DNA of 54,388 nt from Catajapyx aquilonaris (lineage: Eukaryota), in the NCBI GenBank assembly GCA_000934665.2, contig KZ538679.1, positions 1 to 54,388 of the forward strand, written 5' to 3'. Positions 1 to 45,935 of the stretch are shown in pieces. The notes beneath the pieces are model-generated. The model ran no database searches, was not told the origin of the DNA, and saw only the letters and a list, made by a program, of their open reading frames with translations. Numbering within the stretch: position 1 is the stretch's first letter; every line of letters starts with the position of its first letter. Position numbers and translations under genes: made by a program.

Positions 1-173
1 GTCGCAGAAGAAAGGTTATATATACAGATCGAGCGTGCGTGTAACAAAAACAATGTGCCTACCCCTCTCCTGCCGCTTTACAGTAGTCCTCTAAAGAACC
101 CAACCTGCAAGAGACAAAAAGGAAAAAAAAACACACGTGGTATGAGTGCATACACAACAAAGAGGCCCCGTTC

Positions 174-1834: not shown

Positions 1835-2256
1835 CTGCACGGCGAACCAGTCGGCAACACGTCGCAGGTCGCAGCCGACCATGGCCCACTCCTCTTGTGG
1901 CAGCGTCATTTGAACCGGGGCGGCGGGAGGGTCCGGGCTGGTAGATGGCAGCACGGTGCGGTGTTGGGGCTCGGCCTCAGGGCGAACTCGGACGGTGCTG
2001 CCGCCCGCCTCGGCCGCGGCCCTCAGTCGCACTTGCTCCAGGTGGTACAGCCGCAGCCTCAGCTCCTCCTCACCCACCTGTCGAGGTGCAGCATGGCCCG
2101 CCCTGGGGTCGGACCAGGGGCAGGTGGTCACCTCCTCGGGCTCCGCCAACTGGTGGTGCTGCACCGGCGGCGAGGGGAAAGTAGCGCTCTGTACCAGGTC
2201 CGGGAGTGGCAACGGGCCTCGACGTCGACGTCGTCGCCGCCGACGTGGCGCCGCTA
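1835..2256 (-). CDS. Coding exon B: poly-Arg, Pro/Ala-rich linker and C-terminal BH3-like motif (candidate BH3-only module)
   Basis: GC-rich stretch within the longest ORF of the window (1646..2344). Encodes AAPRRRRRRRRRGPLPLPDLVQ...MTLPQEEWAMVGCDLRRVADWFAVQ and ends at donor GTGCAG|GTACGT (phase 0). LRRVADWF fits the BH3 core L-x-x-x-[GA]-D-x-F. Confidence 0.72.
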
Positions 2257-2805: not shown

Positions 2806-2845
2806 ACACAAGTCGAAACATGTTTGTCCTTGGCCCGACTTGTAC
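2806..2845. promoter_or_regulatory. Candidate p53-family response element: four contiguous decamer half-sites
   Basis: ACACAAGTCG AAACATGTTT GTCCTTGGCC CGACTTGTAC. All four keep the CWWG core at exact 10-bp spacing with zero spacer, and the second is a perfect RRRCWWGYYY. Confidence 0.6.
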
Positions 2846-3062: not shown

Positions 3063-3072
3063 CGGTACTTAC

Positions 3073-3349
3073 CCACAGCTCGTCTCCGATGTAGTATCGC
3101 CCTGGCCAGCTCATACAATATGTCCCGCCAGTTGTCCCTCAAAAAGCGGCATATGACCTGCAGCAAATCATGCACCGGCACCACGTTGTCTTCTTCCGGA
3201 TATATGGGCACGGCGCCGGCCACGCCGATCACCAGCTGTACCGACACCATACCTCCAGTCAGTAGGCCGCACCACAGCCGAATGAACCACTCTGCTCTGT
3301 GTTTCCAAACTACAAGTCCAAGCAGGCCGCCTCGTGCTGTGGCCTGCAT
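3073..3349 (-). CDS. Coding exon A of a candidate pro-apoptotic gene: hydrophobic leader, internal IBM-like AVPIYPEE and amphipathic helices (alternative ATG at 3250)
   Basis: Open frame from ATG 3349 (in-frame TGA at 3386-3388 upstream): MQATARGGLLGLVVWKHRAEWFIRLWCGLLTGGMVSVQLVIGVAG-AVPIYPEEDNVVPVHDLLQVICRFLRDNWRDILYELARAILHRRRAV. It ends at a perfect donor GTGG|GTAAGT (intron starts 3072), phase 1, matching the phase of the acceptor at 2256. Confidence 0.6.
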
Positions 3350-3600
3350 CACCCATGGCCCTGTACTGAGCAACACTCCAGCCAATCACAGCACAGGATG
3401 ACGGGGCCTCGCAGCATGTGCTGCTCCATGTGTTTTGTAAACATACGTGGTGGGGGTTGCTAGGGAGGGAGATGACCTCCAGTGGTTAAAAAAGTAACCG
3501 GGCGCCAAACACTTTTCGGACCCGTTCGCGCGCCCGACTCGTTCCCGCCGGCGGGAAAAACACCCCCACCACACCCCAGCAGGTTGGGACATGCCACGTG
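3280..3600 (-). promoter_or_regulatory. Putative proximal promoter of the candidate apoptosis gene
   Basis: Inr-like TCATTC (3285-3280) and TCAGTA (3369-3364); CCAAT box AGCCAATCA 3380-3388; FOXO-type TGTAAACA 3436-3443; E2F-type GGCGCCAAA 3501-3509; palindromic TTCCCGCCGGCGGGAA 3542-3557; CpG-rich. Confidence 0.5.
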
Positions 3601-6600
3601 CGCGTACTGTCTTGCAGCATACCTACGACAGGTGTAATCCGATATTGATTCGCATAGATGACAAAACGTCTATGACATTATATTGATCCGCATACCGCAT
3701 ACATGTCGTATGAGGCTTATCGCATTCCACATGCTGGCTGAGTAGAAAGCCTGGCGCCGTTTGTGATATGAAAAGGAAAATAAAAAATAAGCAGATACTG
3801 GTAATCAATTACGCAGCACTTTTTGATGTAAGCATCTTACTGAAATAGCCTGCAAGAATAGGCAAGATCAGGAGGTCAAAGGTTCGATACGCGTTTGATG
3901 GTTCGATTCGCTAATTATAATAATTAAAATGTATAATTTGACACTCATTCACAGATGGGGAAAACACTACCGGTGAATCAACACTACACTTATTTGCATA
4001 TGAACCGTACTTCCAGGAACCTGACAATTGGAGCGGTATGGCCTGATACATCACCAAAAACATCCCCCTTTAAAAAAAAACCGTGACATACGACTCCTCG
4101 CACTTTCCCAACACCCTGATGAACCTAATGAGCACCGTCCATCAGAAGCCCCAAAATGGACCTCAATCCATCACACCCCATGAACAATAGGGACCAGAAA
4201 GACACGTTAACCCAACTCTAATTTATTTTCCCGCCTTATCCTACATAACCCAGTTATTATAGTCCAACTAGGATTGTATATATCTCCCCCCTCCCCCTTC
4301 CCTCCCTCCTATTTCCTAGATAAATGTCTTTTTGATGCGGTGACTTCCCGATCTGGCCACCACCACTATCTGTTGAGTCTTATTAAAAGGAGATACAAGA
4401 GGGACCTCCCTTTGACTGGTCCAAATCCGGGCGAGATGCTAATTACCCTAGGGGTGTAATTGTACGGAGGGCGACTAGGGAGCATCATTTAGCATCCAGC
4501 CTAGGTAATGAGATATGGCGGATAAAGTCTTCGGGGTTCTAAAGCCAGATGAATGAATAAAAGGTCTCGATTCGCACCCCATGCTTTCGTCTTCTACACT
4601 TTTTTTAAAGGAAAAAAAAATAGATGAGGGGGTTGGAACAGGATGATCTTGCCCAATCAGCCAAGTACAATGTAGGTATTAAAGAGGGTGGTAATTAGCT
4701 GGGAGTAATTAGAAAGAGAGATGATTCCATGGCTACTTCAAGGGGATTTGACGCTTTTCAGTAGGAAGAATGGTGAAGGGTGTGGGGATTGGCGGGTAGT
4801 GTGTCAATCTTTCATTAAGTTCAATAGTCATAAGCAGTGTAATTAATATGGCTACTGGGTCAGGTTCATGATGTCATTTTTTATCCATGGCCTATCAGTC
4901 ATTATCATGACCTGCCATGACCGTTTGTTGCACCTATTGACGCACTATGTGGCATAATGCACATGATAAAAAGTGATGAGTCGACCTTTTGACGCATGTC
5001 GCGACTGCACTTACGGATGACAATATCAATGGCCATCAGCAACGGTTCACGGCTACGGGGCGTTGTATTTTGGGAGCATTTTGAAAAGCTGTACAATCGT
5101 CTAGACCAGGAGACGTCTTTTGAGACTGACCCGAGGGGATTTCTGCCTCCTTTCATCACATTTTGAGTGGTTGTCAATATTGACGTACAGGGGCACCTAA
5201 GTACAGGTACGAGGTCAAGTGCTTGGACAAACTAACCTTGTTGCTACCTCTTGCATAATTCTATATAGCAGATCGATATAGCATGACTTCGATGTCATTT
5301 ACAACGGCTATAGGCTAATCTGGATATTTGATCATTAATCTAAGGTATAATCTTGACGCCTCCTCGTAACCCTTACTCTATTTTGCAAGTATATCCGCCC
5401 GAGTTCCATAATAATTTATGTTGTAGGTTTATGCATATTGACATCAAAACATCACATACGCCCCCCTTCACTAAACCTGCGCAAACATCATGCATGATTG
5501 AGATTCTGAGAAACGATCAGTCTAAATGATATTGAGTTCCAACCTGTGGCAGCATTCTTTTCAGATGTTTCACATGGAGAGCTCCCCCTGACTCGAAAAT
5601 TACTCTATACCTGGGAAGGTGTGACTCACCTTGTATGAATCACTGTCTACTACCCTGGAAGTGTTTGTGTAGCGGAATCCCAACTCATAATTGTGTCCAA
5701 ATGCATGCGACACACAATTTGCGAAATGGAATCGGTCTCATTTTTCACCTGTCCATCGTCAGAGTGTGTCTTAATCTCCCTAATCTTCCAAGAAGGTCCC
5801 GTAAGATCTGGAAGAACCATTTTTCATCCGTCTGCTACCAAGCCACGCATCCTATTACAATCCAAACTAATCAATCCTCCAGATTTGCACTCAACCGGCA
5901 GGTTTATGTAAGATATCTAGTAGATAGCGTGTAGCCTTTCCAGCCTTAAAAAAAAAACAACAACAACGGGAACAAAAGCCCGGTAGCCATCTAGCCATCC
6001 CCATCAACACATTAATTTTACGAGGCACTAAAGTAATGAAAGCTGCTTTTCCAGTGTTGCTACTAGGCAACACTGGATGATACTCGTATTTGGTCTTCTA
6101 AGAAATGACCAGGTCCAGGTACACACTTGTTGCTAAGGGGGGATTGAAAAGCTGAAGGAACGGACACTTGCTACCTAGTATACAAGGGACTGACCTCTGG
6201 GCCACCTGGGCCAAACAGCCTCGGGGGATACGGCACCGTAGGAACCCACCCCTCTTCAATTCCCTAAAGGCTTTTGTGGGTGAGTCATGCCCCGGTAAAG
6301 CAGGTGAGGGAGGGTCAACGGTCAGTCCAACAGTATTTACCACACAGGTGTGTCGAAATTCTGTTTTAAAAAATTGTATTCCAGATTTGTTACATAATGT
6401 CCACTTTTGAAAGTCAAGGTGTGTCAATACCTGTATTTACGCCATAAAGTGGTTTTTAATCAGAAAAAATATGGCTTTTCAAGGTCCTGCAAACAACAAA
6501 CTAGGAAGTTTGGTAAGGAGTGAGTCAGTCATGAAAGTCACGACCATGGCCACGAATTGTGAACGACCTGAGTATACTGTTTGGTCACTGAAGAAGGTGG

Positions 6601-7625
6601 GAGGGTGGGGTAGGGGGTGACTCAGAGCACAAACCCTGAGCTTCCTTTTCACCCGACTAAAATCCGTGAAAGACCCGGTTTTTTCCCCCCTTATTTTGGA
6701 ACCACGACCCGAACTAAATCCTGAACATCTGCACTCCCAACTTTTGGTACGTCCTCAAGGTTTTGCGCAACATTTCGTAAAAATCCCTGGGTTCTTATCT
6801 AGTCTGACCTTGACTTGTAACAACCCGTACTTTATCGTAACGGACCGCACTTGCTCTTTGCGGTTGTACATCAAGGATACACGTGTCACACATACACAAA
6901 AGTGGTCTTCCAAAATAGGATGTGGTACACTTGCCAATATTGAGATTCAACCGGTATTTTTGCAAACACTTGTAATTACTCTCAATTTTTACAGATAATT
7001 TGCACACGCGATACACACGTGTTTGGGCGAGTCCTGCAACAGGTCACCGTTTCATATCCATCAGGTGCTCTTTTTTTATCGACCCAGGGATAGCCTTGCG
7101 GCCAACGTTTGTTTACAACAAAGAGTAATGACCTTCACTAGCTTCAATTCGCGCCTTTGACGATTGGCAAAAAAAAAAAAAAAAACGGGTGATGAATCTA
7201 TAATGGTGTCCATTTAGAGGTCCCTGACCTACCAGGCTAATAGTGACACAGCTGCTAGTAACAATATTCCACAGAGCCAGTGGGGCATACCCTTCCTGAA
7301 CTTTTCTCTTCCAAAATGCACCTGTTGCCTTTAGAAACAATTGGCACCAGGACACCGTTGGTATGGGACAATCTTCCGGGTGCACGACCTGAACGTCTCA
7401 AACTGCTGGTCTTACTCAACTAGTAACAGCTTGCACCTTGACCTTCCTTCTGGTTACGCCATCACCTGTCTCTCAACGGTCCACTTACCACCCACCTGCA
7501 ATACCATTTGTGAGTGCCAGTCTTTCAATGAATTGGAGTAATCGGACCCATACACCGTGAAACACCTACCGGGTGAGTCAGTAAGTATTGCACATGGAGC
7601 AGGAATTTTTTTGAAACCACCGGTA

Positions 7626-44959: not shown

Positions 44960-45935
44960 GTGAATAAAATCATTTAGAGCCACGAACAAAATTATTCAGT
45001 ACCGGTACAGCGAATAAAATTATTCAGTACAGTGAATAAAATTATTTAGTACGGTTAGTAAAATTATTCGGTAGCCCTACAGTGAACAAAGTTATTCAGT
45101 ACGACGAATAAAATTATTCAGTACGACGAATAAAATTACTCAGTACGACGAATAAAATTACTCAGTACGACGAATAAAATTACTCAGTACGACGAATAAA
45201 ATTATTCAGTCCAGTGAATAAGAGTAGCTACGGTTAGTAAAATTATTCGTGAGCCCTACAGCGAACAAAATTATTCAGTACGACGAACAAAATTATTCAG
45301 TACAGTGAATAAAATTAGTACGGTTAGTAAAATTATTCGTGAGCCCTACAGTGAACAAAATTATTCAGTATGACGAATAAAATTATTCAGTACCGGGTAC
45401 AGTGAATAAAATTAGTACGGTTAGTAAAATTATTCGTGAGCCCTACAGTGAACTAAATTATTCAGTATGACGAATAAAATTATTCAGTACGACGAATAAA
45501 ATTATTCAGTACGACGAATAAAATTACCATGTAGAGCGAATAAAATTATTCAGTACCGGGTACAGTGAATAAAATTAGTACGGTTAGTAAAATTATTCGT
45601 GAGCCCTACAGTGAACTAAATTATTCAGTAGTACGACGAATAAAATTACCATGTAGGGCGAATAAAATTATTCAGTACATTGAGTAAATTTAGTACGGTT
45701 AGTAAAATTATTCGTGAGCCCTACAGTGAACAAAATTATTCAGTACAACGAATAAAAATTAATTATCATGTACAGCGAATAAAATTATTCAGTACGATGA
45801 ATAAAATCATATTTTAGAATGGCGAATAAAAATATGTACAATAGTGAATAACGGTTTTAGTATGATGAATAAAATTTGGAATGGCGAATAAAATATTCTA
45901 GTGAATCGCTTCTCAATTGTGATGAATAAAATTAT
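44960..45935. repeat. 22-bp satellite array with higher-order structure
   Basis: Unit GTACGACGAATAAAATTAYTCA in tandem, interleaved with the recurring block GTACGGTTAGTAAAATTATTCGTGAGCCCTACAGTGAAC; edges are degenerate. Confidence 0.92.

Follow-up and report, generated by a model that had tools for sequence, protein, structure and literature searches.

A hid-like RHG gene with a candidate cleavable leader upstream of its IBM

The locus described here raises the question of how an IBM might be exposed when no Met stands before its alanine. The RHG proteins, which rely on Met removal and transcriptional control, and Smac/Omi, which rely on cleavage and mitochondrial release, are regarded as two distinct ways of antagonising IAPs, and AVPI is the tetrapeptide of Smac. 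On the minus strand of the window, i.e. the whole stretch of 54,388 nucleotides that was analysed, codons for AVPI lie at 3214-3203 and are followed directly by YPEE, all within a 98-codon ORF that begins at ATG 3349 and holds a second in-frame ATG at 3250 (Table 1). The initial annotation proposed leaders of 45 or 12 residues from these two codons, and both indeed run in frame to the IBM without a stop. Equally well founded was its observation that neither a Met nor a splice acceptor precedes AVPI: the codon before the alanine is GGC, three substitutions away from ATG; the leader holds 11 ATG or near-cognate codons, of which not one stands directly before the alanine; and the stretch 3400-3180 has 15 AG dinucleotides, of which not one falls at the IBM, the closest one upstream lying 7 codons off the alanine with an acceptor score of -2.3 on a generic splice matrix. 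A 60-nt intron from 3252 was rejected, its acceptor being poor and its excision removing the IBM. Two alternative IBMs, AVPF (exact) at 535 and AIPF at 7498, were discarded as well, since both lack a preceding Met.

Table 1. Features of the locus. Rates per shuffled window derive from 100 block-shuffled windows, with motifs picked after the target was seen and thresholds set at the target's own mismatch counts; splice sites are predicted.
Feature	Position	Strand	Remark
Long candidate leader, 45 codons from ATG 3349	3215..3349	-	net charge +3 over residues 1-24; the following 21 uncharged
Short candidate leader, 12 codons from ATG 3250	3215..3250	-	favoured start; G at -3 and +4
Out-of-frame ORF, 62 codons	3168..3356	-	ATG in gccATGg context, 7 nt upstream of ATG 3349
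uORF, 31 codons	3349..3444	-	stop overlaps ATG 3349 (TGATG)
Initiator-like TCATTC	3280..3285	-	about 33 nt before ATG 3250
Mature part of coding exon 1	3073..3214	-	phase-1 donor GTAAGT at 3072
Amphipathic helix LYELARAILHR (GH3-like region)	3086..3118	-	1 mismatch in 9 specified positions; 0.03 per shuffled window
Three contiguous p53-type half-sites, intron 1	2806-2835		middle one perfect
Coding exon 2	1835..2256	-	weak phase-1 acceptor; phase-0 donor at 1834
LPDLVQS	2186..2206	-	exact match to insect motif; 0.01 per shuffled window
W-x-x-V-G-x-x-L-R-x-V-A-D helix, BH3-like	1844..1888	-	2 mismatches in 10; no occurrence in 100 shuffled windows
Possible in-frame cassette exon, 26 codons	399..476	-	acceptor 1.8, donor 5.6; speculative
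Probable last coding exon, 8 codons and stop	78..104	-	acceptor score 10.2, the strongest of the region

The tetrapeptide conforms to the IBM consensus A-[KTVI]-[PAE]-[FEISY] (PMC8620624). Taken alone it is within chance, with about 91 one-mismatch IBM-like tetrapeptides per shuffled window, and it is regarded as a real IBM because it heads a gene homologous to the RHG genes. In the supplementary alignments of Friedrich (2021, PMC8620624), insect hid-like RHG proteins display, in order, M-A-x-x-F; LY-[DE]-x-x-R-x-IL-x-R; LPDLV-x-S; W-x-x-[VIM]-G-x-x-L-R-x-I-A-x-x-F; and a hydrophobic GW tail, of which the fourth is found in hymenopteran and dictyopteran rows, in most hemipterans other than aphids and in a few beetles, is missing in aphids, and is not evident in dipteran or lepidopteran rows. 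The first four of these motifs occur in the same order on one strand of the window, where AVPI holds the position of the insect M-A-x-x-F start and the LYELARAILHR helix reaches a hydrophobic moment of 0.75; the helix, LPDLV and W-x-x-VG motifs found no match in 23 control loci or in the remainder of the window. Jointly, these short motifs argue strongly for hid-like RHG homology, and the locus is very probably a real hid-like RHG gene with an unusual N-terminus.

Searches for more extended similarity were negative within their respective scopes. No Pfam family matched the exon-2 frame below E 0.1; no protein homologue of this frame was found at E up to 1 among 2392 candidates, and HMMER returned no match of exon 2 among 1.84 billion representatives. 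The exon-1 region, compared with longer proteins, gave 7 candidates and no homologue, and the short exon-1 ORF gave no candidate at all. The ESM Atlas held no usable match, and scans of metagenomes gave 0 of 509 stretches and, in a second pass, 1 of at least 596, which was discarded because it reads antisense to a small gene of a bacterial NADH-dehydrogenase region. The exon-1 ORF found 3 unrelated structures in the PDB, none of them significant, and its single-sequence AlphaFold model has a pLDDT of 59. The lack of a Pfam family below E 0.1 and of a database homologue could be taken to mean that the locus is a chance ORF or a decayed copy and no functional gene; this is hardly credible given that the frames are open, the splice sites match in phase, the codon scores are specific to the frame, and three rare motifs follow the order seen in insects. 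Smac_DIABLO (PF09057) gave no match to the locus at E up to 10, and a genome search for the same family, run without a positive control, gave 0 candidates. The arrangement like a Smac precursor put forward in the initial annotation is only partly supported, given the lack of a Smac_DIABLO match in the locus and the favoured 12-residue start and marginal helix described below: the predicted gene is one that would work like an IAP antagonist homologous to hid, and is not a Smac.

The simplest model of this gene comprises three coding exons whose predicted splice sites fit one another, the phase-1 donor at 3072 with the acceptor at 2256 and the donor at 1834 with the very strong acceptor at 104. 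The donor of exon 1 (score 5.3) is the sole one over threshold between 2200 and 3100, and the codon score of exon 2 is positive in its own frame only. The predicted product has 208 residues from ATG 3250, 196 of which follow the leader, and so displays the roughly three exons (splice sites predicted) and fewer than 300 residues of the family. The genome, searched three times with protein and once with DNA, indicates a single-copy gene, and hence no Met-Ala paralogue was found to carry its function. A further acceptor within intron 1 (2504-2443, minus strand; score 6.2) is in phase with the donor of exon 1, and its use would shorten the protein to an isoform that ends hydrophobically with a terminal Arg; read-through of exon 1 also yields a short form, comparable to the lepidopteran S isoform.

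It is by comparison with the insect N-termini that the leader becomes anomalous, because all 82 rows compared from the supplement of PMC8620624 (15 beetle, 20 hymenopteran, 8 non-aphid hemipteran, 10 aphid, 3 dictyopteran, 13 dipteran and 13 lepidopteran, with culicomorph N-termini left out) begin Met-Ala, and all carry Phe at IBM position 4. The Hid start AVPFYLPE quoted in the initial annotation agrees with the Dmel_hid row of that supplement. The present gene does not place its IBM at residue 2, to be freed by removal of the initiator Met, and is therefore classed as an unusual variant and not as a plain member of the hid family. The uniformity of the 82 supplement rows also speaks in favour of an ordinary Met-Ala hid-like gene whose start codon is wrong in the assembly or the allele, or whose mRNA supplies the ATG by an unseen route, and the fragmented assembly (285.6 Mb in 20,583 contigs) and the 30 N bases in the contig are in keeping with it. 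However, such an explanation would need three substitutions or the exact loss of 3 nt, no N occurs from 2391 to 40770, no acceptor is at hand, and every transcript that includes the strong in-frame ATG 3250 would have its IBM masked; an error or unseen start is decidedly unlikely.

DPP8/9 prefer Pro or Ala, and this preference counts against another alternative, translation from GTG 3223, where the dipeptide to be removed would end in Gly. This in-frame GTG, flanked by G at -3 and +4, would yield Met-Ala-Gly-AVPI, from which loss of the Met and then of the dipeptide would expose the IBM, much as the IBM of AK2 is described to be unmasked by DPP8/9 (PMC12895372). A GTG start is nonetheless very unlikely, as ATG 3250 lies upstream of it in good context and the coding-like codons 34-42 would be left unexplained.

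The composition of the upstream frame bears on whether the leader is translated. In post hoc statistics based on 12-21 codons, residues 25-45 are more hydrophobic than shuffles of their own bases (p 0.0004 for mononucleotide and 0.0023 for dinucleotide shuffles), as are residues 34-45, i.e. the 12-codon leader (p 0.0011 and 0.0067, respectively). Among 35,100 stop-free 21-codon stretches of non-coding DNA of the contig, 1.0% are as hydrophobic and 0.44% are uncharged as well; the uncharged segment of 21 residues upstream of AVPI is as the initial annotation had it. Codons 34-45 have a GC3 of 11/12 and a GC content by codon position of 0.75/0.33/0.92, resembling coding exons, and under a codon model drawn from 2487 codons of this genome the 45 leader codons exceed 97% of GC-rich stop-free stretches. 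No frame-specific coding signal is displayed by codons 1-24 (hydrophobicity p ~0.10; GC3 12/24). The 12 codons preceding ATG 3349 are mildly hydrophobic too (p 0.04-0.05), and local composition may contribute to the hydrophobicity of the leader. An in-frame, stop-free ATG is expected by chance at 25% of positions within 45 codons and at 15% within 12. The reading that the upstream frame looks like translated hydrophobic sequence is supported by these compositional features, the signal being strongest in the 12 codons that follow ATG 3250.

The start at ATG 3250, with its 12-residue leader, is favoured over the 45-residue start, because ATG 3349 sits behind a strong out-of-frame ATG, in a moderate context of its own, and is overlapped by a uORF; the ORF from ATG 3356 continues beyond the IBM. 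The two in-frame ATGs of the initial annotation stand, while the gccATGg ATG at 3356, the uORF ending on ATG 3349 and the A-G-A|V site discussed below had been overlooked. The initiator-like TCATTC is weak as evidence, being 1 of 2 strict matches in 3214-4600 against a background of 1.5 per kb. A 45-residue form could be made at a low level.

The distinction matters for the targeting of the product, as a leader of 12 residues has no room for a bipartite mitochondrial presequence and is short as a signal peptide. In the long form, a charge of +3 precedes the hydrophobic segment and acidic residues follow it, from which we infer, by the positive-inside rule, a stop-transfer or signal-peptide topology that would place the IBM in the intermembrane space or the ER lumen. 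As a membrane helix, the hydrophobic segment scores marginally (KD19 1.88; unweighted Hessa sum +2.7; rich in Gly), and the basic part of the long leader is weakly amphipathic (moment 0.14-0.36). The initial annotation had pointed to V at -3 and G at -1 as fitting cleavage of the signal-peptidase or IMP type. The site V-A-G|A does agree with the -3/-1 rule, but it is one of 7 sites to do so between residues 31 and 46, and it fails the Imp1 motif [IV][HDFM]N|[DE] (PMC8835746) apart from the hydrophobic residue at -3. The sole Ala-x-Ala site (A-G-A|V) lies one residue later and cuts after the IBM alanine, so that cleavage there would remove this alanine and destroy the motif. Caspases are excluded as the leader protease because the leader contains no Asp, and none of the proteolytic routes is singled out for this leader.

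At the other end of the protein, insect homologues carry a hydrophobic anchor that has been linked to mitochondrial localisation (PMC8620624). The predicted tail of the present gene is weakly hydrophobic (KD19 0.73, or 1.14 with the cassette exon at 476-399), and the short last exon of the simplest model contains VGF but neither GW nor a terminal Arg. The contig itself ends 77 nt past the predicted stop, and a different last exon may exist. If this weak tail holds, membrane targeting may have passed to the leader, a role that would explain its hydrophobicity whether it is cleaved or not. When the last exon is read in phase 1 (104-87, minus strand), Gly-Trp appears near the stop, much like the GW motif of insects; this phase could come from donors at 718 and 398, and no convincing upstream exon was found for it.

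Within exon 2, the helix LRRVAD agrees with the minimal BH3 motif L-X3-[GAS]-D as defined in PMC10107002, and the top 2 of its 3 matches in the PDB are PUMA BH3 peptides, at non-significant E values of 0.38 and 0.42. The W-x-x-VG-x-x-LR-x-IADxF helix of hymenopteran, dictyopteran and hemipteran hid-like proteins is likewise BH3-like, a likeness that goes unremarked in the accessible parts of PMC8620624. The p53-type array lies 240-270 nt into the intron, and arrays of three half-sites occurred in 2.5% of 200 shuffles. Together with 3 matches to the Bcl-2 family in the genome, these features favour a further explanation, in which the IBM is a relic: the ancestral Met-Ala would have been lost, an upstream start would be used, AVPI would never be exposed, and the amphipathic and BH3-like membrane-bound helices would act, if at all, on the Bcl-2 family. 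The departure of position 4 from the Phe of 82/82 supplement rows and the want of a clean protease motif in the leader speak for it as well. Against it, AVPI is a perfect consensus, so the loss must be recent, whereas the coding-like leader suggests selection over a longer time, and a relic IBM is rather unlikely. One of the three Bcl-2 family matches has a BH3-type helix of its own and a C-terminal hydrophobic tail.

The host genome would provide partners for an exposed IBM. BIR domains are represented by at least 22 matches among 32 scored, and one of them is close to BIR2 of DIAP1 (1jd4, E 2.4e-30). Twelve loci on eight contigs comprise an expanded family of two-BIR IAPs, with several near-identical copies, one of them carrying a stop inside its BIR match, and a probable three-BIR gene on one of these contigs. 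Several observations bear on the nature of the host. A search for odorant receptors, run without a positive control and giving counts that are lower bounds, found 1 match among 15 candidates, and this one belongs to the gustatory receptors (E 5e-19 for 7tm_7, 2e-7 for 7tm_6); odorant receptors are reported in all insect genomes and as absent from earlier hexapod lineages (PMC6080948). Odorant-binding proteins are represented by one weak match. An intact mitochondrial-type locus in a nuclear assembly contig contains cox1, a tRNA-like stretch (TAA anticodon, by eye tRNA-Leu), cox2, atp8 and atp6, in what we take to be the pancrustacean order, and ARAGORN found no tRNA in the mitochondrial-type loci; a separate locus with a frameshifted cox1 is a nuclear copy. 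The 18S fragment has 63% GC, and the rRNA of Diplura and Protura has shifted towards GC. Shifts in rRNA base composition have been reported for both of these groups (PMC2695459). The weak odorant-binding-protein match and the GC content of the 18S fragment would both suit an entognathan hexapod. The host is probably a non-insect pancrustacean and a basal hexapod.

The remainder of the contig is poor in recognisable genes, with a Pfam match for none of 43 other long ORFs (47 ORFs of at least 110 codons less 3 with N and the exon-2 frame). The roughly 50 kb upstream of the gene (4600-54388) are without a Pfam-matching long ORF, and gene-poor regulatory regions similarly surround the RHG genes of flies. 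A complex AT-rich tandem array with a 22-nt unit, about 36 copies and higher-order periods occupies 44984-45835.

The preferred reading, to which we assign a probability of about 0.42, is that of a hid-like RHG gene with a translated leader and an IBM that would be exposed by cleavage. Translation would begin at an upstream ATG, 3250 being more likely than 3349; all steps after this are ones that we infer. The IBM of the first product would be masked by the hydrophobic leader, which would double as a membrane-targeting segment, a role assigned to it because the gene model has at best a weak tail anchor of the insect type. Cleavage by a protease would then occur at Gly|Ala and free AVPI, which would bind the BIR domains of the host and relieve caspase inhibition. 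The routes to such a cut may be weighted about evenly between mitochondrial stop-transfer with cleavage of the PARL/IMP type, which would require the 45-residue form, ER signal peptidase (cf. Jafrac2), and cytosolic or membrane trimming. The retention of a full consensus IBM in AVPI suggests that its exposure has been selected for. Counting against cleavage gating is the Ile at IBM position 4 in place of the Phe common to the 82 supplement rows, a difference that could be drift. Of the reading given in the initial annotation, a genuine IBM position, a hydrophobic leader that looks translated and the lack of a Met-removal route in the assembled DNA are upheld; the gene itself belongs with the Hid/RHG family and not with Smac. 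A more elaborate version, in which a hid-like RHG protein of a basal hexapod is a Smac-style precursor whose leader replaces the tail anchor and hides a dual IBM and BH3 killer until an organellar Gly|Ala cut, is unlikely.

A hid homologue with a cleavable leader would, if true, link the RHG and Smac/Omi solutions; it would be the first RHG-family protein governed by organellar cleavage and release, not by transcription and Met removal, and would imply that two modes of IBM exposure interconvert within one gene family. Leaving the leader aside, RHG homologues were not found in Palaeoptera, apterygotes or crustaceans and were confined to Neoptera in the accessible text of Friedrich (2021, PMC8620624), a published restriction that a hid-like gene in a non-insect pancrustacean contradicts. 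A literature search covering mostly titles and the opening of abstracts, with few subscription journals, turned up neither an RHG homologue carrying a leader nor one from outside Neoptera. The BH3-like helix, displayed by many insect homologues, hints that the RHG genes may be of BH3-only ancestry. Were the IBM merely masked, the gene would represent a natural loss of the defining motif of its family; were the sequence in error, the range extension alone would survive.

Among known systems, the neopteran hid-like RHG proteins (PMC8620624) are the most directly comparable, sharing with the present gene an IBM-type tetrapeptide followed by P and acidic residues, the LY-x-x-x-R-x-IL helix, LPDLV-x-S, an Arg-rich stretch and the W-x-x-V-G-x-x-L-R helix, as well as three coding exons, about 200 residues and a single copy. 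The present gene differs from them in having no Met adjoining its IBM and Ile, not Phe, at IBM position 4, in a simplest model without a clear C-terminal GW anchor or terminal Arg, and in a host that is apparently outside Neoptera. The bipartite stop-transfer presequence of Smac is cut by IMP or PARL (PMC12895372), and in its 45-residue form the present leader resembles that of Smac/DIABLO, to which Omi/HtrA2 is comparable, in presenting AVPI behind a basic and then hydrophobic stretch; unlike Smac/DIABLO, the locus has no Smac_DIABLO match, its mature part is RHG-like and largely disordered, its presequence is weakly amphipathic, and the 12-residue start is favoured. In Drosophila Jafrac2, the IBM is exposed by removal of a signal peptide of 17 residues (PMC13217685), a case of an insect IBM freed by loss of a short N-terminal peptide as is proposed here; Jafrac2 is, however, an ER peroxiredoxin, whereas the present gene would encode a dedicated RHG-type protein with an ambiguous best signal-peptidase site. 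With the BH3-only proteins, typified by PUMA and by Sayonara of the fly (PMC10107002), the gene shares an L-X3-A-D helix, a PUMA-like flank and p53-type sites in intron 1, but the similarity is not significant (E 0.38) and the present protein carries an IBM and RHG motifs.
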